Positions 2,907 through 56,662 of a DNA stretch of 64,000 nucleotides are shown piece by piece. A program made the translations under genes and the position numbers. The notes beneath the pieces are model-generated. The model made no database searches. It had not been told where the DNA came from and saw only the letters and a list, made by a program, of their open reading frames with translations. The stretch comes from an uncultured Alphaproteobacteria bacterium (GTDB lineage Bacteria; Pseudomonadota; Alphaproteobacteria; Rs-D84), in the NCBI GenBank assembly GCA_947305255.1, contig CAMZDE010000001.1, forward strand, positions 8,305 to 72,304. The letters are read 5' to 3'. Position 1 is the stretch's first letter, and the number at the start of each line of letters is the position of its first letter.

Positions 2907-2936
2907 GAAAAAAACCGCCATGCCGGCGGTTTTTCA
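2907..2936 (-). terminator. intrinsic terminator downstream of dnaN
   Basis: ACCGCC-ATG-CCGGCGG hairpin. On the minus strand it is followed by a T-run. Confidence 0.5.
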
Positions 2937-2950
2937 AAACTAATATTTTA

Positions 2951-7300: not shown

Positions 7301-7813
7301 TTAATTGCCGCTTGTTGGGATAGTGACAGCTTCACCATCACGGCCGAACCAAATCTGCAACTTGGAATTATCATTAGTTCCGGCCACACATTTAGCCTGA
7401 CCACCATTGGCCCATGTTCTGCCTTGCAACCCAGCACAAGTTGTCGCATCACCAGTTTCAAAGGAAATAGTAAATCTATCGCCCGCAGTAGATTCTGTTG
7501 CAGAGGCAACTTCATATACAGAACCGCCGTATGGCGCTTTCACTTGATCGAAGCCCAAAACTTTCAACACATTTGCAGAAGTAACACCGCTGAAGTTATC
7601 AGTGTTGTTGTACAACAAACGGATACCAGCCGCCAAAGCAGCGATATCGTCGTCAGCACGGCTCAATTTTTGGGAACGCATAGCAGATGTAATCAATACA
7701 AACGCCGCAGCAGTGATTAAACCCATAACCGCCAACACACCAACCATTTCAATCATAGAACGGCCGGATTCGTGTTTTTTAGTTACTCTTCTTGTTTGTT
7801 TTTTTTGTTTCAT
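7301..7813 (-). CDS. prepilin-type N-terminal cleavage/methylation domain protein (type IV pilin-like), paralog 1
   Basis: ESGRSMIEMVGVLAVMGLITAAAFVL has Gly, then Glu at +5, then a hydrophobic helix. C-terminal Cys pair. Confidence 0.7.
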   Translation of the reverse strand: MKQKKQTRRVTKKHESGRSMIEMVGVLAVMGLITAAAFVLITSAMRSQKLSRADDDIAALAAGIRLLYNNTDNFSGVTSANVLKVLGFDQVKAPYGGSVYEVASATESTAGDRFTISFETGDATTCAGLQGRTWANGGQAKCVAGTNDNSKLQIWFGRDGEAVTIPTSGN

Positions 7814-7897
7814 TTTTTTCTCCTGTTGTTTTCACATGGCACCTTTATTGTATCATAAAATACAAAACCTGTCAAACCGAAATTCGGTTTTTTTTCA

Positions 7898-8458
7898 TTA
7901 AATCAAATTTTCTGTCTTTTTGTAAAAAATTCCAAAACTATCTTCGATGCGGTTCAACCCAGTATTTGGATTTATCGCCACCGCAACGCCGATATTTTGT
8001 TGTGATTTAACGAATTGAGAATTTGCAAAAGTTTGCCCACATCCCGCACCAACCGAACCGCGGAAAAAGTTATCATTCAATTTTTTGCAATATCTTGAAT
8101 CCAGATTAGCAATATAAATACTGAACACATCCGGATAATCTGGGTCATACACAACACTATAATAACTGCCTTTGCCAAAAGGTGTTGTTGTTGCGACACG
8201 TAATTTTTCTAAGAAATTTTTTCCTGCTTCGATATTTGTAATACCGTCCAACGTTGAAAAATCTCTATATTTCAAAGACAAAGCCCGCACAGTTAATGCG
8301 ATATCCGCGACATCATCTTGGGTTTGTTTTATTTTTTTATTTGTTTGGATTATCGACACTATCCACAACACAAATGCCGCCACAGCACCAACAATAGCCA
8401 AGATAATCGCAGCTTCTAACATTGCAATCCCAGATTCACGATTATTTTGTTTTTTCAT
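7898..8458 (-). CDS. prepilin-type protein, divergent paralog 2 (possible minor pilin)
   Basis: ESGIAMLEAAIILAIVGAVAAFVLWIV has Gly then Glu at +5. C-terminal region unrelated to the neighbours. Contains a Cys pair. Confidence 0.6.
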   Translation of the reverse strand: MKKQNNRESGIAMLEAAIILAIVGAVAAFVLWIVSIIQTNKKIKQTQDDVADIALTVRALSLKYRDFSTLDGITNIEAGKNFLEKLRVATTTPFGKGSYYSVVYDPDYPDVFSIYIANLDSRYCKKLNDNFFRGSVGAGCGQTFANSQFVKSQQNIGVAVAINPNTGLNRIEDSFGIFYKKTENLI

Positions 8459-8486
8459 ATATTCCCCCCATTAAAAAAATAAATTT

Positions 8487-8978
8487 TTATTTAGAGTATG
8501 TAATTTTCAGCACTTTTTTATTACTGATTGTTGAACAAGTTGCGGTTCCGTCAGAATATGTCCGCACGGCCATTGCTTCGCATTCTTCGGCTTCAATTCC
8601 AATCAACCATACAATAAGTTTTCCTCTAGCTGTACTTACCGCGTAATACGAATCATCCCCCAAAGGTGTCGCCCCGTCAGTTTTTAACAACATTCTTGCC
8701 AGATCATACGCTGTCACATAATCATTGGCCACCTTTTTTTCGGGCACCGAACTATCGTCAAACCAGCGCAAAACGCTGTATCCCCCCTGTGCCGCAGTAA
8801 GCGCACTAACACCTTGAACCAATGTACTTATTTCATCGGCGGCGCGATTGCGTTTTTGCGACGCCATACCACTCTTAACCAAAACAAAAGCGCCCGCGGT
8901 CAACAATCCTGCAACAGCCAACACCCCAACCATTTCTATCATCGAACGACCGGATTGACGATTATTGTGTTTTTTCAT
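8487..8978 (-). CDS. type IV pilin-like protein, paralog 3
   Basis: QSGRSMIEMVGVLAVAGLLTAGAFVLVKSGMASQKRNRAADEISTL N-terminus. C-terminal ECEAMAVRTYSDGTATC disulfide loop. Confidence 0.75.
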   Translation of the reverse strand: MKKHNNRQSGRSMIEMVGVLAVAGLLTAGAFVLVKSGMASQKRNRAADEISTLVQGVSALTAAQGGYSVLRWFDDSSVPEKKVANDYVTAYDLARMLLKTDGATPLGDDSYYAVSTARGKLIVWLIGIEAEECEAMAVRTYSDGTATCSTISNKKVLKITYSK

Positions 8979-9006
8979 ACATTCCCCCGTATAAAAACAT
9001 TACTTT

Positions 9007-9519
9007 TTATTTAGAATATGTAATTTTCAGAACTTTTTTGTTACTGATTGTTGAACACGTTGCGGTTCCATCAGAATATGTCCGCACCGCCATTGCTTCG
9101 CATTCTTCGGATTCAATCCCCACCAACCAGATAGCAAAACCATTGCCTTCCCCGCTTATTGCGTAATACGACCCATCCCCCAAAGGCGTCGTTGCTTCGG
9201 TCTTTAACAATACTCTTGCCATTTCATACGGCGTCATATAGTCAGATTCTCCACCGACGGTCTTTGTCGGCACCCCACTATTACTTATCCACGGCAAGAA
9301 ACCAAAATATCCGGTTGTCGCAAGATGTGCCGCAGCAAACGAACGCACTCCTTGGGCCAATGTACTTATTTCATCGGCGGCGCGATTGCGTTTTTGCGAT
9401 GCCATACCACTTTTAACCAAAACAAAAGCACCCGCGGTCAACAACCCTGCAACAGCCAACACGCCGACCATTTCTATCATTGAACGACCAGATTCCTGCT
9501 TCCTTAAAAATTTAAACAT
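9007..9519 (-). CDS. type IV pilin-like protein, paralog 4 (mosaic with paralog 3)
   Basis: N-terminal 44 aa and C-terminal 32 aa are identical to paralog 3. The central region differs. Confidence 0.75.
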   Translation of the reverse strand: MFKFLRKQESGRSMIEMVGVLAVAGLLTAGAFVLVKSGMASQKRNRAADEISTLAQGVRSFAAAHLATTGYFGFLPWISNSGVPTKTVGGESDYMTPYEMARVLLKTEATTPLGDGSYYAISGEGNGFAIWLVGIESEECEAMAVRTYSDGTATCSTISNKKVLKITYSK

Positions 9520-9542
9520 ATCGTATTCCCTTTGTTAAAAAA

Positions 9543-10064
9543 TTATTTACCAAAATAGAACCACGCGGTCCCTTGAACACAGGATGCATCCGCGGCGACA
9601 CCGTGCCACGCCTCTAATGCCAACAATTTGCAATCTTCTTCGTCCAGATTCGCCAATCCCACCCTGAAATAAACAGATGTGCCATCATTTTGCACCCCGA
9701 AATATTCATACCAACTGGCATTATGTGTTGCATCGGATTGCGTAATAACGTAATATGTATCTTCACCCATAGGTGTCACACCATTTGTTTTCAACAAAGC
9801 CTTTGCCATATTATGACCACCTTTGCCACGACCTATTTCGTTTGCCCCCGGCAAAGTAGTAAATTTGCTGCCTTCGGCGGTCAAAGTACGCACAGATTGA
9901 GCCAACGTATTCATTTCATCCATTGCACGACGGCGTTTTTGTGATGACATACCACTTTGAATCAAAACGAACGCGCCCGCGGTCAACAAGCCCGCAACAG
10001 CCAACACGCCGACCATTTCAATCATCGAACGGCCCGCTTCTACTTTTTTATTACAACGTTTCAT
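9543..10064 (-). CDS. type IV pilin-like protein, paralog 5
   Basis: EAGRSMIEMVGVLAVAGLLTAGAFVLIQSGMSSQKRRRA N-terminus. C-terminal CKLLALEAWHGVAADASC loop. Confidence 0.75.
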   Translation of the reverse strand: MKRCNKKVEAGRSMIEMVGVLAVAGLLTAGAFVLIQSGMSSQKRRRAMDEMNTLAQSVRTLTAEGSKFTTLPGANEIGRGKGGHNMAKALLKTNGVTPMGEDTYYVITQSDATHNASWYEYFGVQNDGTSVYFRVGLANLDEEDCKLLALEAWHGVAADASCVQGTAWFYFGK

Positions 10065-10083
10065 TCTTATACCTCTTGTTTAA

Positions 10084-10557
10084 TTATTTTCCAAAATACA
10101 CGGATAAATTTCCACCGTCACATGATGTATCTTGGGCATCGGCCCACGTCTGAACCGACAACAAATAGCAATCTTCAGATTCCAGATTAATCATACCAAT
10201 TCTGAATCTATCTAAGGTGTCACCTTGGGTAACCACGTAATACGTATTATCACCAAAAGGTGTTGTTCCATTCGTTTTCAATAACGCTCGGGCTAATTTA
10301 GGCCCCTGCCCATTTGTAGCTATCGCACTAAGCGACGGCAAATTACCAAAATTTTCAGCCTCTGCAGTCAACATACGAACAGATTGAGCCAGTGTATTAA
10401 TTTCATCAGTGGCGCGACGACGTTTTTGCGATGACATTCCGCTTCGAATTAAAACGAACGCCCCCGCAGTCAACAATCCAGTAATTGCCAACACGCCGAC
10501 CATCTCTATCATTGAACGTCCTGATTGACTATTTGAATATCCTTTTTTCCATAACAT
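10084..10557 (-). CDS. type IV pilin-like protein, paralog 6
   Basis: QSGRSMIEMVGVLAITGLLTAGAFVLIRSGMSSQKRRRA N-terminus. C-terminal CYLLSVQTWADAQDTSC loop. Confidence 0.75.
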   Translation of the reverse strand: MLWKKGYSNSQSGRSMIEMVGVLAITGLLTAGAFVLIRSGMSSQKRRRATDEINTLAQSVRMLTAEAENFGNLPSLSAIATNGQGPKLARALLKTNGTTPFGDNTYYVVTQGDTLDRFRIGMINLESEDCYLLSVQTWADAQDTSCDGGNLSVYFGK

Positions 10558-10581
10558 TTTTTACCTTTTCTATCCTTTATT

Positions 10582-11052
10582 TTACATACCAAATCTCAAA
10601 TATACCGCCCCATCACTATTACATGACGCACCCCATACTTCAGGCCATGTCTGGGTCGCCAAAACCATGCAATCATCGTCATCTAAACCGCGAATAAACA
10701 ATTCGAAATAATCCTTTTCACCAACGCCCTTGATACTATATTTCGTATCCGGCCCAAAAGGTGTTGTCGTATTCAAATATAGTCCATCTATCAACTTTGT
10801 TCCTTCGGCTTCATCAGTTGGCAAATCTGCAAATCCATCAGGATATAAACCACGAATATTTTCAACAATCGCCATAACTTCATCAAACGTGCGCGCACGT
10901 TTTTGGGATGTTGCGCCACTACGCACCAAGACCATGGCCCCCGCAGTAATCAAACTCATTACCGCCAACACGCCGATAATTTCGACCATTGAACGTCCTG
11001 AATCCTCATATTTATATTGTTTGTTTGACATTATTTTTCTCTTACCTTTCAA
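10582..11052 (-). CDS. type IV pilin-like protein, paralog 7
   Basis: DSGRSMVEIIGVLAVMSLITAGAMVLVRSGATSQKRAR N-terminus. C-terminal CMVLATQTWPEVWGASC loop. Confidence 0.7.
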   Translation of the reverse strand: MKGKRKIMSNKQYKYEDSGRSMVEIIGVLAVMSLITAGAMVLVRSGATSQKRARTFDEVMAIVENIRGLYPDGFADLPTDEAEGTKLIDGLYLNTTTPFGPDTKYSIKGVGEKDYFELFIRGLDDDDCMVLATQTWPEVWGASCNSDGAVYLRFGM

Positions 11053-11060
11053 TATTTTTC

Positions 11061-11519
11061 TTATTTGGTATATGCAACGTTCACAAAACCAGTACCATTA
11101 CAATTATATTTTACAGAATTTTTAACCGCCCCAGGCCAAGATTTTTTGGCCAACACGATACAATCACGATCTGGCACATGAGTAATACTGACACGGAAAG
11201 TCTGAAAACTTTCATCTGTTTTGTCCACGGTCACCGCATATTTAGACCCTGAATACGGCCCATTATCATCAATTGCCATTGCCGCCAACACATCGTCACC
11301 ACTGGTCCAATCTTTCAAATTATCGTAATCTGCGAATAATGTACGAACACCCGTTACTATCTTAGAAAAATCGTCCATAACAGTATTGCGCCGTTGGGTT
11401 GCCATCGCACTACGTATCATAACAAACGCACCCGCAGACATTATCGTCATTATCGCCAATACGCCGATGATTTCCAACATTGACCGACCAGACTCTGCCT
11501 TTCTTGTGATTTTATACAT
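11061..11519 (-). CDS. type IV pilin-like protein, paralog 8 (first gene of the array)
   Basis: ESGRSMLEIIGVLAIMTIMSAGAFVMIRSAMATQRRN N-terminus. C-terminal CIVLAKKSW...KYNC. ATG at 11519 with AGAGGG RBS. Confidence 0.7.
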   Translation of the reverse strand: MYKITRKAESGRSMLEIIGVLAIMTIMSAGAFVMIRSAMATQRRNTVMDDFSKIVTGVRTLFADYDNLKDWTSGDDVLAAMAIDDNGPYSGSKYAVTVDKTDESFQTFRVSITHVPDRDCIVLAKKSWPGAVKNSVKYNCNGTGFVNVAYTK

Positions 11520-11567
11520 CAATGCAACCCTCTTGATTTTTATGAATTATATTTTATCATAAAATTC

Positions 11568-13701: not shown

Positions 13702-15666
13702 TTACACAAATAAATCCTTAACAAATTGTGCGTGTTCTGTGATAAATTTAAATCTGAACTCTGGTTTTTTACCCATCAAATCATTTACCAAAGTTTTTGT
13801 TTTTTCGGTATCTTCGACACCTTCTTCGGTTTTAGGTGGTAAATCAACGCGAATTAATCGACGTGTTTTCGCAGACATAGTTGTTTCTTTCAATTGGTTC
13901 GGCATCATTTCACCCAAACCTTTGAATCGTGATATTTCAACTTTTCTGTTTTTGTATTTATTCGCCTTTAATTCTTCTAATTCCTCATCAGTATCTACAT
14001 AAATCGATTCGGTTCCACACGTCAATTTATAAAGTGGCGGACAAGACAAATACAAATGTCCCCCATAAATCAATTGTGGCATATATTGATAGAAAAACGC
14101 CATCAACAGCGACGCAATATGGCTGCCGTCAACGTCAGCATCGGTCATGATAATAATTTTTTCATAGCGCAATTTTGCATCGTCCCAATCTTTCGCAGTT
14201 CCTGCACCGATAATATCAATCAAATCATTCAATTCACGATTTGCACTGAATTTTTCATCAGAATTAGACAACACATTCAAAACCTTACCGCGCAACGGCA
14301 TAATCGCTTGGGTTGCCCTATCCCGTGCCTGCTTTGCTGTTCCACCTGCAGATTCACCCTCAACAATAAACAATTCAGTTCCTTCGACACCGTGTTTTGA
14401 ACAATCGGCTAATTTCGCAGGCATACGAATCCGCTTAGTCGGGGTTTTGCGCGCAACATCTTTGACTTGCTTTGTTTTAATACGCGCATTTGCCAAATTT
14501 ATCACAAATTCCAACAAAGCATTTGCAGTTTTCGGATCCGATGCCAAAAACATTTCCCATGGATCTTTGACTGCATTTTCTGTGTATCGCGCAATTTCAG
14601 GATTCGACAATTTTTCTTTGGTTTGACCTAAAAATTGTGGCGTTCTATAAAACACAGAAACAATCGCCGCAACCGAATCAAAAACATCTTCGCCAATAAT
14701 AGACGCCGCCGCTTTGTTATTTATCTTTTCACCGTACGCCTTTAACCCCTTGGTTATTGCAGCCTTAAATCCAGCCTCATGCGTGCCACCATCAATCGTC
14801 GCAATCGTATTGCAATATGACGCAAAAAATCCATCATCAGACGCCGCCCCATTTTCATCAGTCAACACAGTCAACGCCCATTCCACGCGTCCCATATCAT
14901 CAGGAAAATCAATCGCGCCCGAAAAAATCTTTGGCAGAATACGTGGCTTAGAATCCGTCTTTTCCGCGACAAAATCTGCAACACCGTTCGGATAGTAAAA
15001 CACTTTGTCCGCTTCGATATTCATATCTTCGGTCAATAGTGCCGGATTACAATGCCATTCAATCTTTACCCCACGTGACAGAAACGATTTCGCCCGCGCC
15101 ATACGATAAATCTTAATCGGCTTAAACACAGCGCTTTCGCCAAAGATTTCATCATCTAATGTAAATCTGATTTTTGTTCCATGCGCCTTGGTCGCCGCGC
15201 CGCGCTCAATAGGACTGGTTGTTTTACCGCGTGAAAAAGTCTGGTGCCATTCGTATCCATCGCGCGAAATAACGACATCCATATTTGACGATAGTGCATT
15301 TACAACCGCACTGCCGACCCCGTGCAAACCACCACTGGTTTTATAAACATTGTTATTAAATTTTCCCCCCGAATGCAGGGTTGTCAAAATAACCTCTAAC
15401 GCGGATTTCCCAGGATATTTAGGATGTTCATCAACCGGAATTCCACGTCCGTCATCTGTGATTTCTATGGTTTTTGAATCGATTAAATTTACAACAATTT
15501 TCTTTGCAAAACCGGCGACCGCTTCGTCAATAGAATTATCCATAATTTCGACCGGCAAATGATGCCATGCCTTTTCATCGGTTCCGCCAATATACATCCC
15601 CGGACGCAAACGTACGGGTTCTAAGCCTTCCAGAACTTGAATATCAGACGCATCGTATTTATTCAT
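13702..15666 (-). CDS. parE: DNA topoisomerase IV subunit B
   Basis: GyrB/ParE ATPase and TOPRIM motifs (LEGLEPVRLRPGMYIGGTD, GLHGVGSAVVNALS, EGESAGG). The 654 aa length fits ParE rather than GyrB. Confidence 0.8.
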   Translation of the reverse strand: MNKYDASDIQVLEGLEPVRLRPGMYIGGTDEKAWHHLPVEIMDNSIDEAVAGFAKKIVVNLIDSKTIEITDDGRGIPVDEHPKYPGKSALEVILTTLHSGGKFNNNVYKTSGGLHGVGSAVVNALSSNMDVVISRDGYEWHQTFSRGKTTSPIERGAATKAHGTKIRFTLDDEIFGESAVFKPIKIYRMARAKSFLSRGVKIEWHCNPALLTEDMNIEADKVFYYPNGVADFVAEKTDSKPRILPKIFSGAIDFPDDMGRVEWALTVLTDENGAASDDGFFASYCNTIATIDGGTHEAGFKAAITKGLKAYGEKINNKAAASIIGEDVFDSVAAIVSVFYRTPQFLGQTKEKLSNPEIARYTENAVKDPWEMFLASDPKTANALLEFVINLANARIKTKQVKDVARKTPTKRIRMPAKLADCSKHGVEGTELFIVEGESAGGTAKQARDRATQAIMPLRGKVLNVLSNSDEKFSANRELNDLIDIIGAGTAKDWDDAKLRYEKIIIMTDADVDGSHIASLLMAFFYQYMPQLIYGGHLYLSCPPLYKLTCGTESIYVDTDEELEELKANKYKNRKVEISRFKGLGEMMPNQLKETTMSAKTRRLIRVDLPPKTEEGVEDTEKTKTLVNDLMGKKPEFRFKFITEHAQFVKDLFV

Positions 15667-15834
15667 ATTTTTCCCATTTTAACAACATATTATTATAACA
15701 TTTTTCCATTTTGTGCAAGGGCAAAATCGCCCCGCCCCACCCAAAACACGGGAAAAATATAAGTATCATGCGCACTTGATTTTTATCCAAATATAACTAT
15801 ATACTTCATAAAGTAAAAAATTGGTGAATAAAAA

Positions 15835-16968
15835 ATGAATAAGAATCCTTATGAAGTCCTTGGGGTCTCGCGCGACGCGTCAGACACCGATATCAAAAAG
15901 GCCTATCATAAATTGGTTATGAAATATCACCCTGATAAAAACCCAGGGGACAAAGCGGCCGAAGAAAAGTTTAAGGAAGTTAACAATGCATTTGATATAT
16001 TAAAAGACCCGCAAAAACGCGCGGCATATGACCGATTCGGTGACGCGGCATTTGCCGGCGGCAACGGGGCCAGCGCAGGCGGCGGCTTTAACGGCAATCC
16101 ATTTGGCAACGGCGCATTTCATTTCAATATGGGTGGCGGCGACATGGGCGGAATGGAAGATATTTTACGCGAAGCCATGCGTGGTTTTGGATTTGGTGGC
16201 GGGTTTGGCGACGGCGCGCGCGGGAATCAACAACAACGCGGCCGCGATTTATTGGACGAAGTCGTCATCGATTTAAAAGATGCTTTTTTCGGCACAACAC
16301 ATACTGTAAAATTCACCAGTGCGGTAAAATGCGAAAAATGTAATGGCAACGGCACGGCCGACGGCAAACCTGCCCCAACATGTAAGACATGCGGTGGCAC
16401 AGGATACGTCCACGCACGTCAGGGATTTTTCGCGGTCGAAACACCATGCCCTGATTGTCATGGATTGGGCAAACAGATCGATAAAAAATGCAGTGCCTGT
16501 GACGGCACCGGCACGGTTAATAAACAGCGCACATTGGATGTAAAAATTCCCGCCGGTATTATGGACGGCGCGCGCCTGCGTATGGCCGGCATGGGCGAAG
16601 CGGCCCCGAACGGTGGCCCCGCAGGCGATTTCTATATCGATGTCCATATCCGTCCAAATAAAACATTTGAACGCATCGGTAACGATTTGTTAATGCGACG
16701 CGATATTGATTTTGCAACCCTGACTTTGGGTGGCGAAATAGAAATTGAAACAATCGACGATAAAAAATTGTCAGTAAAAATCCCATCGGGAACTCAGGTT
16801 GGTGAAAAATTGCGTGTCCGCGGACATGGTATGCCAACGGGCCGCGGTGGCTTTGGCGATTTATACATTGAAATCGGAATTGTCATACCCAAAAAATTAA
16901 CCGAAAAACAAAAGAAGGCATTGGCCGAATTCGCCGGCATAAAGAGCGATAAAAAAGGTTGGTTTTAA
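15835..16968 (+). CDS. dnaJ: molecular chaperone DnaJ
   Basis: J-domain with HPD ([10 protein letters not shown]). Gly/Phe-rich linker. Four CxxCxGxG zinc-finger repeats. C-terminal substrate-binding domain. Confidence 0.9.
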
Positions 16969-16998: not shown

Positions 16999-17517
16999 TT
17001 AAAAACCATTCGTCAAAGAGACACTGGTTATATCATCACTGTCCCAAGTTGTATAAACAGCAACCTGTTGCGCAGCGATATAATCTTTCACAGCTTTTAC
17101 AGCCCCACTCAACCCATCTCCCGCAACAAGAAACCGCGAAAGAAGATTAGTCTGCAAATTATCGTTTAAAAATACTTCTCTGACTATATCGTCACCTGCC
17201 ACTGACCCAAGTGCCATATTTTCCATTGCTCTACCTGTTTCGTCATTAATAATCTTTCCCTGTTTATCACTGTCCAATTTATTCACCGCCGCAATTGCGT
17301 CATTGTATGCACCCTTGACATACGCAGTGGTGGCGATATGCGTTTCGTCGGCCGCCGTTGGTGTGATTGTCACATATGGTGCCGGTGCAGTTGCAACAAC
17401 CGCCGTTCCATTTGCCGGCACCGCGGACGGCCCGACCGGCGTCACAGGGTCTGCATTTGCAGCAAACGTCGACGACGCAATCATTGTTAATGTTAATAAT
17501 AGCTGTTTCGTTGTCAT
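16999..17517 (-). CDS. secreted protein of unknown function, HIATTAYVKGAYN/YTTWDDD family, copy A
   Basis: Start MTTKQLLLTLTMIASSTFAANA (signal peptide) with GGAGAG RBS. Shares the conserved core TADETHIATTAYVKGAYNDAIAAVNK and C-terminal YTTWDSDD with the ORFs at 22355-22846 and 52007-52540. Confidence 0.6.
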   Translation of the reverse strand: MTTKQLLLTLTMIASSTFAANADPVTPVGPSAVPANGTAVVATAPAPYVTITPTAADETHIATTAYVKGAYNDAIAAVNKLDSDKQGKIINDETGRAMENMALGSVAGDDIVREVFLNDNLQTNLLSRFLVAGDGLSGAVKAVKDYIAAQQVAVYTTWDSDDITSVSLTNGF

Positions 17518-17723
17518 TGTTTCTCTCCTTTTGTTCGTTTTAACAACAAACAACCACCCGATTAAATGGGTGGTTGGAGGTTCAAGACAATTGTAGTTTA
17601 AATTGTGCCGTTTATTTTACCATATGGTATTATTCACGGGCCCTCCAACCATAAATTAAGGTTGGAGTTTTTACGTCTCTCCTGACGAACTTACATCGGG
17701 CCTTGATACCCCATCGGAAAAAC
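17518..17723 (-). promoter_or_regulatory. conserved structured 5' leader, copy 1, with terminator/antiterminator alternative pairing (candidate riboswitch or attenuator)
   Basis: Read on the minus strand. 5' hairpin UCGGAAAGGG..CCGA. Central stem with conserved GAAUAA and ACAAUUU/AAAUUGU hairpin. CUCCAACC/GGUUGGAG, GGUUGGAGG/CCUCCAACC and CAACCACCC/GGGUGGUUG+UUUGUUGUU pairings are mutually exclusive. Two more copies with compensatory substitutions are at 22847-23107 and 52541-52745. Confidence 0.5.
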
Positions 17724-19391: not shown

Positions 19392-20402
19392 TCAATTTAA
19401 AACGTAACCACCATCTTGTTTTCTTATCAAACCTTGTAATTCTAACATTACTAAATCCGCCTTGATTTCCGGAACGGTTTTTTTGACAAGGTTTGCCAAT
19501 ACAGATTCAGAGACCGGAATCATTCCTATTTTATCAAGCACATCATTTTCGGCCCCATTATTTTTTTTATGATTTTGTTCTTTTGTGTCTTCAAAAAAAT
19601 CTTTTGATGACATACATAGTGTCGCCAGACCATTTTTTATTAATGAATTTGGCCCCGCGCTTCGCGGATCAGACGGATGCCCTGGTATCGCAAACACTTG
19701 TTTTCCGTAATCCAATGCGAATCGTGCAGTTGACATACTGCCTGAATTTTTGTCTGCTTCACCGATAACCAACAAATCTGCCAACGCCGCAACCCAATGA
19801 TTTCGCTGTATAAAATTACTAGCCACCGGCGTTGTCCCAACAGGCATTTCACTGATTACAACACCCCTATCTAAAATTTCATAATACAGCGATTCGTTTT
19901 CCAACGGCCATATATAATCAACACCACCCGCCAACACCGCCACAGTCTGCGAATCGCCACCCGATTTCAAAGCCCCCATATGCGCGGCCGAATCGGTTCC
20001 CATCGCCATTCCAGATACAACTGCAAAATTATGTTCTGCAAATTCGTATGCCAAATTAGACATAAAATCCATACCCGTTGCAGTCGAATGTCGTGTTCCA
20101 ACCATTGACACCATTTTTTTATTTAACGTGTCCAAATTCCCACGCGCCGAAATAATTGGCGGATGATTTTTAACCGCGCGCAAATTAATGGGATACCGCG
20201 CATCTTCATCAGATATATATGTTATCCCCATATCATTTGCCACATCCATTTCGCGCCGCACAGAATCAATAAAATCATGTCCTAAATTTAACGAATCGAC
20301 CGCCGCGCAAACATCGCCATATTCCGCAATCAATTTGTTGTATTTTACTGGCCCTATCCCCGAAGATCGCAATATCAAAAGTTTTTGTAATAACATATCC
20401 AT
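19392..20402 (-). CDS. dprA: DNA processing protein DprA (Smf)
   Basis: Rossmann-like DprA core with GMAMGTDSAAHMGAL. ATG at 20402 (MDMLLQKL). The ORF track extends to a TTG. Confidence 0.75.
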   Translation of the reverse strand: MDMLLQKLLILRSSGIGPVKYNKLIAEYGDVCAAVDSLNLGHDFIDSVRREMDVANDMGITYISDEDARYPINLRAVKNHPPIISARGNLDTLNKKMVSMVGTRHSTATGMDFMSNLAYEFAEHNFAVVSGMAMGTDSAAHMGALKSGGDSQTVAVLAGGVDYIWPLENESLYYEILDRGVVISEMPVGTTPVASNFIQRNHWVAALADLLVIGEADKNSGSMSTARFALDYGKQVFAIPGHPSDPRSAGPNSLIKNGLATLCMSSKDFFEDTKEQNHKKNNGAENDVLDKIGMIPVSESVLANLVKKTVPEIKADLVMLELQGLIRKQDGGYVLN

Positions 20403-20459
20403 AACAAAAAGATTGTAGAACAAATCTACAATCTTCTTGAAGTAAAAAATTACAAAATC

Positions 20460-21296
20460 TTACTTTCCGAATTCGTCCAACAAACGCGCATATGTATAGC
20501 AATCGAAATCTTCGATATTGTTGTTATTACTATCACACGCTTTCTTGATAAGTTTCAAACTTTTGACGTATTCGTTATATTGTTGTGTCAGACCTTTTTC
20601 TTTCAAAGTCAACAATTGTGATCTGTACACATCGATTTCGTCCAGACTTTTATCTTTTTGCCCTTCGACTTTGCCGCCGATTAACCGGTTACCGAACAAT
20701 TCCATCGCACCAACACCGATACCGGCACCACCAATAGACGACGCAACGATTCCGGCGATACGATTACCCTTTTTGGCATCTAATATACGTTTTTCAAGTT
20801 CGGCTTTGTCGGCCCAACTGCCACATTCGATTTCTTCGCCCCACATAAAATATCTAGGCTTTATATCCGACACAGAAATCCGCGATTCGTCATCTGATTT
20901 GAAATCGACACGAACAAAGCAAACATTGTTTTCCGGATTTACAAGATCTTCGACCATGCTGGCATAGTTAGAAGTATTGCTATAACGTGATGCCCAAACG
21001 AAAGTATTTCCAACGCCGATATTATTGCTGATACATGCGTTTCTTTCCGCCTCACGCATATCGACTTTTTCTTCTGTGGCCATCACATCTGTTGGTTCTG
21101 TCCCGTTACTATTTGCAGACGTTTTGTCCACCACGACCGCATTATTCGCCGCCACCATACCATTTAATTGGTTTATCGATGCCGTATAACGTGGCGCAGA
21201 CATAATCTTATTAGACATTGCCGGACGCCCAGATTGCGCACCATACGCATTCATCGCAGCGAAAGTCAGAACAAACATATACATAAAACGTTTCAT
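20460..21296 (-). CDS. secreted hypothetical protein with glycine-zipper segment
   Basis: Signal peptide MKRFMYMFVLTFAAMNAYGA. GIVASSIGGAGIGVGAMELFG segment. No family recognised. Confidence 0.5.
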   Translation of the reverse strand: MKRFMYMFVLTFAAMNAYGAQSGRPAMSNKIMSAPRYTASINQLNGMVAANNAVVVDKTSANSNGTEPTDVMATEEKVDMREAERNACISNNIGVGNTFVWASRYSNTSNYASMVEDLVNPENNVCFVRVDFKSDDESRISVSDIKPRYFMWGEEIECGSWADKAELEKRILDAKKGNRIAGIVASSIGGAGIGVGAMELFGNRLIGGKVEGQKDKSLDEIDVYRSQLLTLKEKGLTQQYNEYVKSLKLIKKACDSNNNNIEDFDCYTYARLLDEFGK

Positions 21297-22354: not shown

Positions 22355-22846
22355 TTAATCTTCGGGTAACACTGTTTCCAATGGAATATTAACCGAATCC
22401 CTGTCATCATCCCACGTCGTATAGATTTTAACCCGTTGACTTTTGATACCGGCCTGCACAGCAGCGCCAGATACTAAGTTTCTATCGGTCAATTCAAAAT
22501 CCTCTTCCCCAGCGAGAATATTTACAAAATAAGTACCGCCGTATACCTCATTGTCGACAAAAACAAACTCATCTCCATCAACAAAAAGTAGATCTTGTTT
22601 CTGATTCAATCCAGCAATCGTGTCATTATATGCGCCCTTGACATATGCGGTTGTGGCGATATGTTCCGCATCAGCGTTTGTTATGGTTGCGGTTGTATAA
22701 GGTCCGTTATAACTAGCCATTGTCACAGTTCCATTTTGTGGCACAAGTGCTGGACTACTTACATAGTTATACGTGTAATCAGCCATTGACACGCACGGCA
22801 ATGCGGCAATTATTGCTAATGTTAATAGCGGTTTCATTGTTCTCAT
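22355..22846 (-). CDS. secreted protein of unknown function, HIATTAYVKGAYN/YTTWDDD family, copy B
   Basis: Signal peptide MRTMKPLLTLAIIAALPCVSMA. Core DAEHIATTAYVKGAYNDTIAGLNQ. C-terminal IYTTWDDDRDS. Confidence 0.6.
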   Translation of the reverse strand: MRTMKPLLTLAIIAALPCVSMADYTYNYVSSPALVPQNGTVTMASYNGPYTTATITNADAEHIATTAYVKGAYNDTIAGLNQKQDLLFVDGDEFVFVDNEVYGGTYFVNILAGEEDFELTDRNLVSGAAVQAGIKSQRVKIYTTWDDDRDSVNIPLETVLPED

Positions 22847-23195: not shown

Positions 23196-24824
23196 TTAAT
23201 CCAATGGCGCACCCCAATGTTGTTGGATATTGCGTTCCGCGTCCATCGGGCTGACCAAAACCTGAGGCGTCAAGATAACAACCAAAACTTCACGCGACGC
23301 CTTGGTATCACGCGACCCAGACAACGCCATAAAGTCCGCATCACCCAAACCATAACGTGTATCATTATTGCTCTGCTTTTCAAACCCAGACACAACCAAC
23401 ATCTGGCCAGATTCCATAATGACTTCCTGCATGAACGAACGTTCTTCTACTTCTGGCAATTGTAATGTGAAGCCGTCGTCCCCACCAATAACCTGGGTAT
23501 CCATCTTTAACAATTCACGCACAGACATTTTGAACAACAACAATATTTTGCCGTTTTCTAAAACATTCGGCAACAATTGCATTGAAAATCCAGTTTCTAA
23601 TTCGTCTTGGTCAACCGTACTGGATTCAACCGTCGTGAAATTACGAGATTCCAAACGTTTGATGTATCCTGTGGTCTTGGTATTTGTCACAGGCGCAACA
23701 CGATTATTACGTGTCGTCACACCAACATTTGTCACCAATGAAACCTTGCCCTGCTTTGCCAAAGCCTGAATCAAAGCATTCGACCCCGCCAAACGTGCCA
23801 TAGAACCGTTACGAATCTGGTCTTCGGAATAATATGTTCCTGCGATTCCACCTTCTGCACCAATGCTGGTCACTTCGGCTGCTTTATTAGACAACACCGC
23901 GACATTCATCGTGCTGGCACCTGTTATAGTTGGCGTACTGGGGGTGGCAACGATATTCAAGCCCGACGCAGAATTTACCGCCGCCGCCAAATTCAACCCA
24001 AAAGCAGATTCATTAGACAACGAAACCTGTAACACTTTGACATCTATCGTCACCAATTGCGACAAGCGTTTATTTTGTCTTTCGATATAACTCGCTACAC
24101 GGGTCAATATAGATGGCGCCGCCGTCACAGTGATTGTTCCCAAACTACGTGACACAGTAAATTGTGCGTTTCTTGCACCATTTATAATAGATGTAATCGT
24201 TTGTTCGATTTCGTCCCATTCATTTAATGACGAACGCAATGCGATATTACTGCCGTCATCTGACGATACAGATGAATTATATTCAACATCTGTCCCCAAC
24301 GCATATAAAGTATATGTACGCGTTTCTGTTTCATAGAAAACGATTGATCCGTTTTCATAATACCATAACAAATCTAAATCTGTCGCAATTTGAGACAACA
24401 ACCCAGACAATTTACCGGTATATGCAACGTCCACAGTTCTCTTTAATTTTTCAGCATCAACCTGACTATCTATTTTTACCGGAATCCCAGTAATAGAATT
24501 TATGTCATTTGCCAAAACCTGTAACGTCACAGGCGTATTTAATAAAATAGTCACCCCTGTATCTGTTTCATATTTTGATGGCAAATTGTTTTTATGTTCC
24601 AAAAGTGTTGATTTATTACCCAACCAAACACCTTCTGACATAGATACAGTATCATTACTGGCGACATTTGCCGTTGGGTGTTTTGATTTTTCGAACGCTT
24701 CATACGCATTCACAAAACTCTGGTCCACAGCCGCAGACACCTTGGCCGATTCATGCAACGTACACCCCGCCACAGTCATCATGGCCATCAATCCCACAAA
24801 ACAAACATATAAACGATTTGTCAT
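23196..24824 (-). CDS. secretin-family outer membrane lipoprotein (type IVb pilus BfpB/TcpC-like, or CpaC/PilQ-like)
   Basis: Lipobox MMTVAGCTL. C-terminal secretin domain (VVSGFEKQ...LVVILTPQV). Beta-rich N-domains. 542 aa. Confidence 0.7.
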   Translation of the reverse strand: MTNRLYVCFVGLMAMMTVAGCTLHESAKVSAAVDQSFVNAYEAFEKSKHPTANVASNDTVSMSEGVWLGNKSTLLEHKNNLPSKYETDTGVTILLNTPVTLQVLANDINSITGIPVKIDSQVDAEKLKRTVDVAYTGKLSGLLSQIATDLDLLWYYENGSIVFYETETRTYTLYALGTDVEYNSSVSSDDGSNIALRSSLNEWDEIEQTITSIINGARNAQFTVSRSLGTITVTAAPSILTRVASYIERQNKRLSQLVTIDVKVLQVSLSNESAFGLNLAAAVNSASGLNIVATPSTPTITGASTMNVAVLSNKAAEVTSIGAEGGIAGTYYSEDQIRNGSMARLAGSNALIQALAKQGKVSLVTNVGVTTRNNRVAPVTNTKTTGYIKRLESRNFTTVESSTVDQDELETGFSMQLLPNVLENGKILLLFKMSVRELLKMDTQVIGGDDGFTLQLPEVEERSFMQEVIMESGQMLVVSGFEKQSNNDTRYGLGDADFMALSGSRDTKASREVLVVILTPQVLVSPMDAERNIQQHWGAPLD

Positions 24825-24857: not shown

Positions 24858-25799
24858 TTATTCTATGGTCGATATGACCAAAACCCGATTTCCTTTGTAA
24901 AATTTCGCATACGGTGCAGGCATCGCACGTTCAAAATTACGAACCAGCGCAGACGCAACATCTACAAAACGCCCCTTAAATACAGCACTGGCCTCTATCG
25001 GATATTCACGTGGTGTTGTCCAAACCAAATCCCAACCTTCTTTGTCACACCAATTTCTTAAAACTTCCTGCAAAGTCTGGCCCGACGCAACAACCCATGA
25101 ACGAACTTCGTTTTCAACGAACGCAGGCGCAGCATCATCAACATCTTCGTTCACGTTAATGATAACATTTGCACCGTCTTTAACAACGCTATCTTGGGCC
25201 GGCTTTTCAGCAACAAAACCCGCGCGTTCCGCAAACGCGATATAAGAATCAGGCCGTTTATTGCAAATTCTGCGCGGGCTGCGTGACATAGACAAAACAG
25301 TTCCGCCATCATCTTCCATCATTTCACGTTGCAACAATGGCATTTCAGCATCATTCACACATTCATAATCAAACCCAGCTGGAATTTGTTGGCCATTATA
25401 AATATTCGCCCCCCCAGACCAGCCAGTTCCAATCGCAGAACCCGCCATGTTTATGTTATTTTCAATAACCAAACCCGAACCAATTTTTGAAACAATCTTT
25501 AATTCACCATCGGGACATTCACCACTATCACACGCGATTTTGAAATCCGCATCGGTCCCAGCAATCGGCCAAATCGGCACAGGCTGTTGTTCAACATACG
25601 TCACATTTGTTGGTTCGTAATAATTCGCGTTTTCATAACGTTGTTCAACGACGGTTTCTTCACGAACGGTGTTATCTTGTTCTTGCTGGTCGTAATCATA
25701 GAACACCTCTGACGTAACAACCTGTTGTGGCAAATCCGCCCCAAAGGCAACGCCAGACACCAAAACCGCCAAAAATGCGAAATAAAATCTATGTAACAT
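24858..25799 (-). CDS. TcpQ-like secretin-associated periplasmic protein (putative)
   Basis: Signal peptide MLHRFYFAFLAVLVSGVAFGA. C-terminal SGQTLQEVLRNWCDKEGWDLVW...YPI resembles the TcpQ/PilL C-terminal domain. It lies directly upstream of the secretin. ATG at 25799 with AAAGGAAAG RBS. Confidence 0.45.
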   Translation of the reverse strand: MLHRFYFAFLAVLVSGVAFGADLPQQVVTSEVFYDYDQQEQDNTVREETVVEQRYENANYYEPTNVTYVEQQPVPIWPIAGTDADFKIACDSGECPDGELKIVSKIGSGLVIENNINMAGSAIGTGWSGGANIYNGQQIPAGFDYECVNDAEMPLLQREMMEDDGGTVLSMSRSPRRICNKRPDSYIAFAERAGFVAEKPAQDSVVKDGANVIINVNEDVDDAAPAFVENEVRSWVVASGQTLQEVLRNWCDKEGWDLVWTTPREYPIEASAVFKGRFVDVASALVRNFERAMPAPYAKFYKGNRVLVISTIE

Positions 25800-25977
25800 A
25801 TTCTTTCCTTTCATCTATTATTATTCAATTATATCAATTTGACCGAATCAGTGCAAGACATAAAACACACATTTTTAATAAAAAAATAAAATTAAAAAAA
25901 CATGCAAGATAAAATCGCACGAATCGATAAAACATGTTATACTAAAACCCGAAAGAATACAAAAAACAGGTAAAAAC

Positions 25978-35955: not shown

Positions 35956-37263
35956 ATGCAGAAATTTTTTATACAAACCTTTGGTTGCCAAATGAACGTC
36001 TATGACGGCCAACGAATTGCCGCTATGTTAAAAACACGCGGTATGGTTGAAACAGATAATGTGGCGGACGCTGATTTAATCATTCTTAACACATGTGCGG
36101 TTCGTGAAAAGGCAACCAACAAAGTTTATTCTGCATTAGGACGCATACGTCGTGCAAAAAAAGAATCTGCCCTGTTCGGGATTGTTGGTTGTGTTGCGCG
36201 TGAAAGTGGCGCCGACGCATTTAAGAGAATTCCCGAATTAAATTTTGTTTTGGGGCCACAAAGTTATCATAAATTGCCTGAAATTATTGATAATCCCGAC
36301 ACAAAATTGTTAAACATCGATTTGGGCGGTCTTGAAAAATTTGATGAATTACCACAAATGACACAAACGCCTTTGGTCGCATATATACCAGTCCAAGAAG
36401 GCTGTAATCATTGTTGCACCTATTGCATTGTGCCATATACACGCGGTCGTGAAATATCTCGTCCATTTAATGATGTTATAAATGACACAATCAATGCGGC
36501 AAACACAGGCGCAATTGAAATTTGTTTTCTTGGGCAAAATGTGAACGGATATCAATACATAGATGAAAACGGAACGACATATCGTTTGTCTGATTTAATT
36601 CGTGCGGCGGCGCAATTGCCCGAAATCCAACGCATACGCTTCACATCCAGTTACCCAACAGAAATGACAGATGATTTGATTGAAATTTTTGGAACAGAAA
36701 AAAAACTATTACCATTTTTGAATATGCCGATACAAAGCGGATCTCCGCGTATATTAAAATTAATGAATCGACCTGATGATTTGAATGCATATAAAACAAT
36801 CGTTGAAAAATTAAAACGCGTGCGCCCAGACATTCAAATTTCATCAGATTTTATTGTTGGGTTTCCTGATGAAACCGACGAAGATTTCGCAGAAACATTA
36901 CGTATAGCGCGCGAAATAAAGTATATAAATTCGTATTCATTTAAATATTCTCCACGTCCACATACGGCGGCTGCATTAATGAAAAATCAAATCAGCGAAC
37001 AAATAAAATCTGTACGCCTACAAAAACTGGATGCGCAATTAAATGAAAATCAACGCGAATTTAATATGTCCTGCATCGGTGCTGAAATGCTTTGTTTATA
37101 CGAAAGCGCGGACAAAACAGGCAAAAACTTGGTTTTCCGAACCCCATATATGCAACAATGCATTGTTGCAAAACCCGACCAGAAAATCGCATCTATGCAA
37201 AAAATAAAAATTATTGACGCAAATAAATCATGCCTGCACGGGGAAATAATAAAATCAGAATAA
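35956..37263 (+). CDS. miaB: tRNA-2-methylthio-N6-dimethylallyladenosine synthase
   Basis: MQKFFIQTFGCQMNVYDG N-terminal MTTase domain. Radical-SAM CxxxCxxC (CNHCCTYC). TRAM domain. Confidence 0.9.
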   Translation: MQKFFIQTFGCQMNVYDGQRIAAMLKTRGMVETDNVADADLIILNTCAVREKATNKVYSALGRIRRAKKESALFGIVGCVARESGADAFKRIPELNFVLGPQSYHKLPEIIDNPDTKLLNIDLGGLEKFDELPQMTQTPLVAYIPVQEGCNHCCTYCIVPYTRGREISRPFNDVINDTINAANTGAIEICFLGQNVNGYQYIDENGTTYRLSDLIRAAAQLPEIQRIRFTSSYPTEMTDDLIEIFGTEKKLLPFLNMPIQSGSPRILKLMNRPDDLNAYKTIVEKLKRVRPDIQISSDFIVGFPDETDEDFAETLRIAREIKYINSYSFKYSPRPHTAAALMKNQISEQIKSVRLQKLDAQLNENQREFNMSCIGAEMLCLYESADKTGKNLVFRTPYMQQCIVAKPDQKIASMQKIKIIDANKSCLHGEIIKSE

Positions 37264-38814
37264 CATTTTTGCATTTATTGATGCGCGATATGCCATAGAA
37301 CGTTCATCATTATATGCGCCGACGTTTATCGACAATCCGGCATTATCGGTCAAAGAATCAAAGCCGATTTTGAAATCTGCAAACAAATCGCCATTCGTCA
37401 TAACACCGATTAATCCACCATATTCGTATTTAATGCCATCAACCACAAAATTATATTTCAACATTCCACCACCACGTAAACTAACATCATTTTCAGAAAA
37501 ATCCATTACATTAAATCGTTGAAATACCATGCCTACAAAAGGCGCAATAGTTAAATCATCAAAAACATTAAAATCGTGTATGCCGTCAATTCCGCCGTAT
37601 AACGCATATCCAAACGGATTATTTTTCACATCATTATTGTTATAAACGTTATCTGCATCAAAAGAAATTAAATCTAAACCCAAACGTCCAACAACCGATA
37701 TATCTTCCATTTTCTTTTTAACATTTACGTTACCACCATACGACAAACCACCAAAAACGTTTATATCATCTTCATATTCAAATTTATCAAGATGTAAATT
37801 AACTTTTATATCATACCCATCGTGCCCACCATTAGCGTAAAGCCGTGCACCGGCACTATGTGTATCTTTTGATGTGATAAATTCGGGTTCAACACCAATC
37901 GCAAATGCATTATTGGTATCTAAAAAGCCATTCAACATTGAAAACTGCAGATTTGTTTTTATAGGCCGCATTAAAATCCCAGAATTAAATCTGTATGACG
38001 AATTAATAACATTTTGTAATTCGTCCATACTTCCGGCATTATCCATCGCCAGCAACATTTTATCATTTGGATTAGACGCGCGCAGATTTCCAAAGAATAC
38101 GCCCCGATTATCATTAAAAATTCGTTGATAATCAGTTTCCCGAACAACATTCAACATCATACCATTTTCATCACGCACAGAATCAATGCGATACAAACTA
38201 TCTTCATCTGCGGCCACAACGTTCAATACGGTTCCACCGGCGACATGTCGCACATATTTACCAGATTCCACAGTATTTGAATTATTTATACGCAGCGTAT
38301 TTGCCCCCAACCATGAAACATTCGCGTCCCAACGTTGCCATTCTGCAAAATCATCTATGACAATCACAGACATATTAAATTCGACAGAATCAGAACCTAA
38401 ATTTCTTATATCTGCCAAATTAACACCGTCCATGGCACCATCAACCTTTACTGCAAAATCGCCAGTATTTACGTTTAAGCGTTTTGCACCGTCACCCGAT
38501 GTTACCAATTGAATAATATGTTGTGCATTAATAGTGCCTGATACATTTCCTGTATTATTTATCCAAATCCAATTATCACTTTCCGCAACTAAATTTCCGC
38601 GTATTTCGCCATGATTTTCAATAGTCATTGACCCATTCACATTTATATCAGAATTACCTGATGTCGCCGTCAAAACCACACCATTCAAAATTCTATTGTA
38701 CGAACCAACGAAAGAAGACACCGACGCATCTTCAGACCACACGACAACCTCTTCCGCAAACCCAGCGTGCATTGATATCAGGAAACAAAATATAACTATG
38801 CGGAATATTTTCAT
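37255..38814 (-). CDS. outer membrane beta-barrel protein (autotransporter-like surface protein)
   Basis: Signal peptide MKIFRIVIFCFLISMHAGFA. Asn/Gly-rich passenger-like region. C-terminal amphipathic beta strands ending in F. Confidence 0.5.
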   Translation of the reverse strand: MKIFRIVIFCFLISMHAGFAEEVVVWSEDASVSSFVGSYNRILNGVVLTATSGNSDINVNGSMTIENHGEIRGNLVAESDNWIWINNTGNVSGTINAQHIIQLVTSGDGAKRLNVNTGDFAVKVDGAMDGVNLADIRNLGSDSVEFNMSVIVIDDFAEWQRWDANVSWLGANTLRINNSNTVESGKYVRHVAGGTVLNVVAADEDSLYRIDSVRDENGMMLNVVRETDYQRIFNDNRGVFFGNLRASNPNDKMLLAMDNAGSMDELQNVINSSYRFNSGILMRPIKTNLQFSMLNGFLDTNNAFAIGVEPEFITSKDTHSAGARLYANGGHDGYDIKVNLHLDKFEYEDDINVFGGLSYGGNVNVKKKMEDISVVGRLGLDLISFDADNVYNNNDVKNNPFGYALYGGIDGIHDFNVFDDLTIAPFVGMVFQRFNVMDFSENDVSLRGGGMLKYNFVVDGIKYEYGGLIGVMTNGDLFADFKIGFDSLTDNAGLSINVGAYNDERSMAYRASINAKMLF

Positions 38815-49290: not shown

Positions 49291-49321
49291 AAAAACCTTC
49301 CTTTGCTATAATGGTATTTTA

Positions 49322-51974: not shown

Positions 51975-52010
51975 AAAAAAAGCACCGCCAAATCGGCGGT
52001 GTTTTTTTAT
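51975..52010. terminator. bidirectional intrinsic terminator between dksA and copy C
   Basis: CACCGCCAAATCGGCGGTG hairpin with an A-run before it and a T-run after it. Confidence 0.6.
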
Positions 52011-55505: not shown

Positions 55506-55589
55506 AAAACCACCAACGAACCAAGACAAAAAACATCGGTCAATGCATAAAAAACATCGACCGATATAGATAAAATCATCATATAAAAA

Positions 55590-56585: not shown

Positions 56586-56662
56586 GGATTTGCCCTCTTT
56601 TGTTTGTTCATGCGACTATTATATCATAAAAAAACACAATGAACAAACGAATCGTGAAAAAT

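Follow-up and report, generated by a model that had tools for sequence, protein, structure and literature searches.

Why does a bacterium with a genome below 1 Mb carry eight genes for pilus subunits side by side? The question is raised by a 64,000-nucleotide stretch of DNA from an uncultured alphaproteobacterium of the order Rs-D84 (GenBank assembly GCA_947305255.1, contig CAMZDE010000001.1, forward-strand positions 8,305 to 72,304), all of which was analysed and is called the window here. Its minus strand holds, at 7301–11522, eight consecutive intact prepilin open reading frames (ORFs) of 153–186 aa, and the ORF coordinates bear out what a sequence-only reading had said of them; the eight copies amount to about 0.5% of such a genome. 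We put at roughly 70% the probability that they encode eight type IVb pilus subunits, expanded in tandem in Candidatus Enterousia (Rs-D84), which share one assembly machine and present varied surfaces.

Enterousia belongs to the uncultured order Rs-D84, whose genomes are about 0.75–1.0 Mb and which is common in gut and rumen (PMC12306168, in its accessible part). According to the same portion of that source, Rs-D84 and Enterousia neither respire nor have a tricarboxylic acid cycle, are short of most biosynthetic pathways and lack standard transporters, and are proposed to depend on partners; type IV pili are reported there for another lineage, UBA9783, and we found no mention of them for Rs-D84 in that portion. 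How these organisms meet their needs is obscure, and the pilin family provides a concrete handle on their attachment to partner cells or to the host mucosa.

Identity of the array proteins

As judged from sequence, the eight-gene pilin array is far beyond what chance would produce: the family has more than 450 database homologues and the array is repeated in two other assemblies. Seven of the eight copies, which are numbered pil1 to pil8 by rising coordinate and transcribed in the direction from pil8 to pil1, share (S/A)G↓RSM(I/V/L)E and, behind it, a stretch of about 20 hydrophobic residues, the exception being pil2 with G↓IAMLE. The common N-terminus and class III signal that had been proposed for these seven, with Gly at −1, Glu at +5 and a hydrophobic helix, were found as described, and all eight proteins agree without exception in G(−1), E(+5) and one Cys. 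In a family alignment of 87 sequences E(+5) is invariant and G(−1) is conserved in at least 90%. Leaders are positively charged, measure 10–19 aa and are followed by Arg or Ile at +1; the mature parts comprise 137–176 aa, each with exactly two Cys, 15–20 residues apart, near the C-terminus. Of the traits of the type IVb subclass, the long leader and a +1 residue other than Phe agree with this, whereas a mature protein of about 180–200 aa with a large disulfide-bounded D-region does not. This pair had been ascribed to most copies at a spacing of 14–20 residues, and is in fact present in all eight within the narrower range.

The type IVb major pilins are the nearest proteins of known structure. 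A profile of the 87-member family matched, among PDB sequences, TcpA (8uhf) at E=2.5e-10, CofA at 3.9e-5 and BfpA at 6.4e-4. Its alignment with TcpA runs from the N-terminus through the first Cys and lays R-S-M-I-E on M1-T2-L3-L4-E5 of TcpA, which fixes the cleavage site after Gly. Arg at +1 had been thought atypical and the true site possibly elsewhere, a doubt that the alignment removes: Arg is the norm of the family, including relatives encoded inside complete type IVb operons, and since the pilins of those operons have the same G↓RSM(I/V)E start, Arg(+1) is compatible with a full IVb machine.

Structure prediction, which the sequence-only reading had proposed as a check, gave models with the alpha-beta pilin fold (a long N-terminal helix on an antiparallel sheet) and a globular part of the IVb type. 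The AlphaFold2 model of pil6 is confident, with a predicted local distance difference test (pLDDT) of 91.3, and consists of a 52-residue N-terminal helix, a loop and a short helix, a four-stranded sheet and one further helix. That of pil2 (pLDDT 77) shows the same major-pilin-like fold, scoring 9.4 against CofA and 9.1 against TcpA, with an additional low-confidence insertion at residues 142–170. A Foldseek search against PDB was uninformative.

Profile and models together identify the array genes as encoding predicted type IVb-class prepilins (PilS/TcpA/CofA class), in agreement with the original preference for a TcpA-like pilin over a pseudopilin or Flp. They constitute a compact and divergent subfamily within a familiar class of proteins, and we found no report of type IVb pilins in Rs-D84 in the accessible part of the literature. 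Matches to the curated libraries lie below threshold (in Pfam, PilS_N at E=0.023 for pil1, N_methyl at E=0.013, and PilS with 15.1 bits against a cut-off of 22; in NCBIfam, GspH at E=0.005), and the family therefore stays unannotated. Weak NCBIfam matches to GspH and GspG, together with the annotation of some homologues as PulG or GspH, could speak for pseudopilins, which would build the short periplasmic piston of a type II secretion-like system for protein export; type IVb systems such as the toxin-coregulated pilus (TCP) and colonization factor antigen III (CFA/III) also export proteins. We hold this to be most improbable, since GspG and GspH score 12–17 bits against cut-offs of 80–89, no gsp genes lie in the window and type IVb major pilins come out best in both sequence and structure. 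The linked secretin, moreover, is of PilN type with a TcpQ partner, and the relatives' operons hold PilO and a second PilT-like ATPase rather than a Gsp set.

In order of transcription, the array opens beside uvrC with pil8 (11061–11522, minus strand, as are all eight; 153 aa from the called TTG), which has an alternative in-frame ATG at 11519, a leader of about 11–12 aa, the site G↓RSMLE and a mature part of 141 aa with Cys109 and Cys129. The second gene, pil7 (10582–11052; 156 aa, again from a called TTG, with an alternative in-frame ATG at 11031), has G↓RSMVE and a mature part of 137 aa with Cys109 and Cys125. Then follow pil6 (10084–10557; 157 aa, G↓RSMIE, mature part 144 aa, Cys117 and Cys133), pil5 (9543–10064; 173 aa, AG↓RSMIE, 162 aa, Cys134 and Cys151), pil4 (9007–9519; 170 aa, G↓RSMIE, 159 aa, Cys129 and Cys144) and pil3 (8487–8978; 163 aa, G↓RSMIE, 153 aa, Cys123 and Cys138). 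The seventh gene, pil2 (7898–8458; 186 aa), had been singled out as a divergent member with a GIAMLE leader, and the alignment agrees; its mature part of 176 aa has Cys114 and Cys130 and then a 46-residue tail that includes the low-confidence insertion. The last gene, pil1 (7301–7813; 170 aa), adjoins rluC, has a promoter-like site of its own, and encodes a 17-aa leader, G↓RSMIE and a mature part of 153 aa with Cys109 and Cys125.

The gaps between ORFs as called are 84, 28, 28, 23, 19, 24 and 8 bp from pil1 to pil8, a range of 8–84 bp rather than the 25–85 bp first given; the downstream ATGs of pil7 and pil8 are the more likely starts and would widen the last two gaps. A purine-rich ribosome-binding site precedes the start in eight of eight genes, so that the claim of an own site for each stands. 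The array lies on the majority-gene strand of the window, a few kb from dnaA, dnaN and gyrB. Identity between copies is 27–72% overall and 26–39% between pil1 and the others, the closest pairs over the mature part being pil3/pil4 (72%) and pil5/pil6 (56%). With the helix constant and the globular domains differing to this extent, the copies could therefore use one machine and present different surfaces.

Origin, expression and variation of the array

Relatives were sought by scanning one genome per species, which yielded 79 loci, referred to by L numbers where one must be told from another. All but one (78/79) are labelled Alphaproteobacteria or proteobacteria, with gut, rumen or faeces as the sources where one is stated, and the closest are labelled Candidatus Enterousia. 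The same eight-gene array recurs in two assemblies that match the window at 98.5% identity along 14 kb. Throughout L001–L042, as far as the contigs permit, the order is (dprA-)dnaA-dnaJ-gyrB-pgsA-uvrC-[pilin]n-rluC-asmA-dnaN-efp, and at least 42 genomes at species level retain the pilin locus together with G(−1) and E(+5). The slot between uvrC and rluC holds one pilin gene in 37 of the 42 loci and two to five in L001–L005, among which L002 and L005 are the two contig ends of one metagenome-assembled genome with jointly at least five; eight copies are confined to the window and the strains nearly identical to it. By UvrC identity (84–87%), the genomes with several copies rank among the nearest relatives of the window. 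A single copy in 37 loci, and more only in close relatives, therefore indicates a lineage-specific tandem expansion, which is unusually large for a genome below 1 Mb and leaves a natural series of 1, 3, 5 and 8 copies in which the diversification of a pilin family can be studied.

Best hits between arrays tell something of the order of duplication. At the uvrC end, pil8 has as positional orthologues the first array genes of L001 and L004, and pil7 pairs with the second genes of the same two loci (best match L001, 54% identity); at the other end the counterparts of pil1 close the arrays of L001 (60%), L003 and L004, and pil2 has a weak counterpart in L001. For each of the middle four, pil3 to pil6, the closest relative is another of the four. 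The outer two at either end are thus older paralogues and the middle four lineage-specific duplicates; the comparison implies a single ancestral major-pilin gene that was duplicated in one subclade and then again, mid-array, in the lineage of the window.

Larger proteins accompany the pilin in a more distant clade that includes Candidatus Enterousia intestinigallinarum and avistercoris. There L069 (4006–7924, minus strand) and about 14 related loci (L051, L054, L056–L058, L062, L065, L068, L070–L072 and L078) carry three genes of 400–469 aa, 2 kb from the single pilin and across an intervening gene. At least two of them have prepilin-like N-termini (…G↓SMLIE and …G↓ASMLE), and they are possibly large minor pilins or adhesins; the window has no homologue of these genes.

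Two promoter-like sites lie in front of or within the array. P1 (11551–11579, minus strand), upstream of the array, consists of TTGAAT, a 17-nt spacer and a TG-extended TAAAAT, and contains the TGATAAAAT extended −10 that had been noticed at 11551–11559. P2 (7847–7875, minus strand) lies in the 84-bp gap ahead of pil1 and has TTGACA, a 17-nt spacer and a TG-extended TACAAT; with 11 of 12 consensus matches it is stronger than P1, to whose region it is 77% similar, and a hairpin at 7874–7890 overlaps its −35 element. The window contains seven instances of the 14-mer TTTTATGATAMAAT, in which a T-rich stretch precedes an extended −10, against an expectation of 0.53; most of them stand in front of genes (sites include 474–487, 7847–7860, 11551–11564, 49316–49329, 55496–55509 and 56618–56631), and the 14-mer is probably the organism's consensus promoter core. 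Judged by these elements, the array looks like one operon transcribed from P1 with P2 as a second strong promoter for the last gene. No RNA families were found by Rfam in the 6–27 kb part of the window.

A strong promoter for the last gene alone would also suit one highly expressed major subunit, the other copies being minor pilins that act in a priming or tip complex or as low-abundance decorations on a single filament type. Other features point the same way: orthologues of the outer genes recur at matching positions in the multi-copy species, a hint of roles that are stable and distinct, pil2 is strongly divergent in its G↓IAMLE site and its extra C-terminal insertion, and three to four tandem pilins stand in the complete operons of relatives as well. 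The earlier suggestion that pil2 is possibly a minor pilin has to be set beside its model, which is folded like a major pilin. We regard such a division of labour as possible, yet rather unlikely, and prefer eight subunits that differ in their exposed surface.

How far the copies still change was judged from the 98.5%-identical strain, in which all eight genes are intact and collinear with the window, in unchanged order and with no shuffling. The pilins differ between the strains by 0–4% of nucleotides, mostly synonymously, with 47 synonymous and 17 non-synonymous codon changes and a rough ratio of non-synonymous to synonymous rates (dN/dS) of 0.1; seven flanking housekeeping genes show 113 synonymous and 14 non-synonymous changes. 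These counts indicate that all eight copies are under purifying selection. All but one of the amino-acid changes in the pilins fall in the globular part. The C-termini had been called hypervariable, a word that does not hold: the paralogues differ from one another and are nearly fixed between strains. Within the first 52 shared codons, paralogues differ at many synonymous positions (19 synonymous and 6 non-synonymous in pil5/pil6), and the helix is therefore kept by protein-level selection and not by recent gene conversion, pil3/pil4 excepted, whose DNA is 87–91% identical at both ends and lower in the middle.

These results bear on antigenic or phase variation, in which a single expressed copy is switched by gene conversion, by inversion or by slipped-strand mispairing, as in the models of Neisseria pilE/pilS and Moraxella pilin inversion. 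Many divergent copies with a common 5' end, the mosaic of pil3/pil4 and the concentration of strain differences in the globular part are what such switching might leave behind. The array, however, contains no truncated, promoterless or silent cassettes, every copy being full-length with start codon, leader and ribosome-binding site, and the 5'-truncated donors and mosaic strain variants that accompany the single expressed locus of the Neisseria type were not found. Nor does it have convincing inverted repeats flanking a promoter or gene (two pairs were found, 76–77% complementary) or homopolymers of 9 or more, and its tract density is ordinary; the near-identical strains share gene set and order, and the synonymous divergence of the N-terminal codons speaks against ongoing homogenisation. 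Switching is accordingly very unlikely in our estimate. The comparison of strains, advised earlier as a way to detect gene conversion, showed no shuffling; the mosaic of pil3/pil4 came to light between paralogues. From the intact copies in the second strain, the mainly synonymous change and the lack of switch elements, functional diversification is favoured: of the two forms in which a pilin repertoire had been envisaged it fits best, and antigenic or phase variation is not supported.

The secretin pair and the assembly machinery

A major pilin and a secretin, two of the mandatory components of the type IVb pilus model for the type IV filament superfamily (TFF-SF), are both present in the window; the model names pilA, pilB, pilC, pilD and pilQ as mandatory and permits multiple loci (Denise et al. 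2019, PMC6668835). The secretin gene (23196–24824, minus strand), which encodes 542 aa with a lipoprotein signal (…TVAG↓C), matches Pfam Secretin at E=2.2e-13 and belongs with the PilN family, scoring 251.6 bits with NCBIfam TIGR02520 (cut-off 287.65) against 94.6 for MshL. Directly upstream lies a gene for a periplasmic protein of 318 aa with a Sec signal peptide and a TcpQ domain (24858–25814, minus strand; Pfam TcpQ E=1.1e-17, 64.3 bits against a cut-off of 27), an order that matches complete type IVb operons. The pair is about 12 kb from the pilin array. It had been overlooked when the window was said to lack genes for a prepilin peptidase, an assembly ATPase and a platform protein, a statement that is otherwise borne out. 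The gene downstream of the secretin (22355–22846, 163 aa) was considered as a ninth pilin and rejected, since its product has a signal peptide and belongs to a different family of paralogues; tblastn detected no trace of a pilin in that slot.

Complete operons with pilins of this family exist in five distant relatives (L043, L044, L045, L049 and L061). Their order is TcpQ-domain gene, secretin, PAP_PilO, a 540-aa PilP-like protein, a GspE/PilB-type ATPase and a T2SSF platform, then three to four tandem pilins and a second PilT-like ATPase. The TcpQ-domain gene of the window is homologous to the first operon gene of L043, L044, L049 and L061, and its secretin is 30% identical to that of the complete operon of L043 and 78% to that of L040, another Enterousia. 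The operon pilins have the same G↓RSM(I/V)E-GVLAI start and exceed the Pfam thresholds of PilS and Bundlin. In L040 the TcpQ-secretin pair is followed directly by a pilin gene. A matching secretin was found in both genomes (n=2) in which that region was covered.

Several observations weigh against a working type IVb system with eight subunits. No ATPase, platform, PilO/PilP or A24 peptidase was found in the 64-kb window (nor, by motif scan and Pfam, a peptidase in any fetched locus), and none of these genes lies within 10 kb on either side of the pilin in about 42 Enterousia loci; the order in L040 resembles the ancestral operon minus its four middle genes. The window pilins, furthermore, score below the curated Pfam and NCBIfam cut-offs, and their mature parts of 137–176 aa and their Cys-Cys loops are compact, the loops being much shorter than in TcpA and CofA. 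The order in L040 makes outright loss of the cognate motor possible, besides relocation. That more than 40 reduced genomes have kept G(−1) and E(+5) favours relocation of the motor genes.

An Enterousia ATPase was looked for in several ways and not found. Exact protein matches past the end of the window led no further than a 5-kb contig. A homologue search with the L043 ATPase gave 120 matches, all at least 81% identical and from other lineages, and clade-specific patterns applied to metagenomes gave only relatives at least 73% identical. The best low-GC candidate among representatives at 50% identity (P0248) proved to be of another lineage, as did four AT-rich candidates, which come from complete operons with bundlin-like G↓LTLIE pilins (N-termini of two).

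The metagenome scan also showed how widespread the complete operon of the L043 type is among assemblies from the human gut: L084–L163 are 80 such loci, with ATPases 73–98% identical and several contigs of 200–570 kb. A further low-GC lineage has three consecutive genes behind its complete type IVb operons, whose pilins are bundlin-like (L165 18111–21604, L166 8372–11865 and L169 9492–12974). According to the locus, two or all of the three have weak radical-SAM/SPASM matches; this hints at a linked module for peptide or pilin modification.

Could the locus be what is left, decaying and without function, of a type IVb operon that lost its motor genes in the course of genome reduction? The lack of an ATPase, platform or peptidase near any Enterousia pilin or secretin locus examined, and the deletion from pilO through pilR that the L040 order suggests, would agree with this. 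Such decay is nevertheless hardly credible where purifying selection maintains intact genes in a genome below 1 Mb, where the locus with its G(−1) and E(+5) persists in at least 42 species-level genomes, where the copy number has recently risen rather than fallen and where P1 and P2 both match the organism's consensus. Another reading, which we hold to be improbable, is that the cognate PilO/PilP/ATPase/platform block was lost while pilins and secretin were kept and the pilins amplified eightfold. The pilins would then work with a non-cognate or highly reduced motor. Alternatively, the eight paralogues might form mixed filaments serving as partner-specific attachment or uptake organelles, in a Patescibacteria-like epibiotic life within the Alphaproteobacteria. 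A new kind of system would be at hand only if the motor genes prove absent.

With eight subunits on one shared machine, the reading we prefer, each precursor would enter the inner membrane, and a prepilin peptidase whose gene lies elsewhere would remove the leader up to its Gly, leaving R-S-M-I-E with Glu at position 5. The subunits would polymerise through their common N-terminal helix, driven by an ATPase and platform likewise encoded elsewhere, and the filament would exit via the PilN-type lipoprotein secretin and its TcpQ-like partner, the pili being either mixed or alternative filaments. As to purpose, we speculate that the set broadens adhesion to partner cells or to host surfaces and mucosa, and possibly helps to evade phages or immunity. 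The growth of a single gene into eight intact copies suggests that surface pili matter for the probably partner-dependent life of Candidatus Enterousia. A compact type IVb pilin has been kept throughout the lineage and has escaped curated domain models; adding the family to pilin models would improve the annotation of gut metagenomes.

Other genes of the window and comparison with known systems

Between dnaA and the plsY-secretin region lies dprA (19392–20423, minus strand), 8 kb from the array; DNA uptake by the pili is conceivable, but dprA is widespread and is not evidence for it. Adjoining it is a 278-aa protein (20460–21296, minus strand) with a hydrophobic, signal-peptide-like N-terminus and no Pfam match, and about 20 Enterousia genomes have it in this place too. 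Small proteins (163–184 aa) of a family without a Pfam match are encoded three times in the window, at 16999–17553, 22355–22846 and 52007–52540, all on the minus strand; the second, which begins with a signal peptide, occupies the slot after the secretin where L040 has its pilin. A further copy of 248 aa (15322–16068 in the near-identical strain L080) sits in a 1.2-kb insertion that is absent from the window, the insertion point being at about window position 2913–2948. Two proteins of 519 and 892 aa (37255–38814 and 52851–55529, both minus strand) have hydrophobic, signal-peptide-like N-termini and may be exposed at the surface or secreted; neither Pfam nor NCBIfam matches them, and none of the fetched loci encodes a homologue. 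The last part of the window encodes a 752-aa type IV secretion coupling protein of the VirD4/TraG type (61222–63480, plus strand; Pfam T4SS-DNA_transf, TrwB_AAD_bind and TraG-D_C), which suggests that the reduced genome also keeps a type IV secretion or conjugation-like system.

Compared with TcpA of Vibrio cholerae, CofA and LngA of enterotoxigenic Escherichia coli (ETEC) and BfpA of enteropathogenic E. coli (EPEC), the window pilins are shorter (mature parts of 137–176 aa against about 180–208), have a Cys-Cys loop of 15–20 residues where those have several tens, carry Arg at +1 where Met or Leu is usual, and fall below the Pfam PilS and Bundlin cut-offs. Those systems have one major pilin, whereas here eight paralogues stand outside the machinery operon. 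A further counterpart is the R64 thin-pilus or Salmonella Typhi PilS-type operon (pilL-pilV), the type seen in L043, L044, L045, L049 and L061, with the same pilin family and a homologous TcpQ-PilN pair. The Enterousia system is scattered by comparison, with the pilins between uvrC and rluC and the secretin pair 12 kb off; its pilins in the window are about 30–50 aa shorter, and no shufflon or PilV-like gene was seen.

Sets of several full-length paralogues, tandem or dispersed, with a common assembly helix and a differing exposed domain are likewise known from Streptococcus sanguinis PilE1/PilE2 (PilA1-3), Haloferax PilA1-6 and archaellin arrays (PMC11121087, PMC4858521). The members of those sets are used together or alternatively, while co-assembly in the window array is putative; those systems are monoderm type IVa-like or archaeal, whereas this one is IVb-class, from a diderm with a genome below 1 Mb. 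The epibionts of the Patescibacteria (candidate phyla radiation, CPR) are likewise reduced, auxotrophic and presumably partner-dependent, and keep pili (PMC9177762 and PMC12306168), which are thought to mediate attachment to other cells (PMC9177762). Phylum and pilus class are different, so that the parallel with Enterousia would be one of ecology rather than homology.

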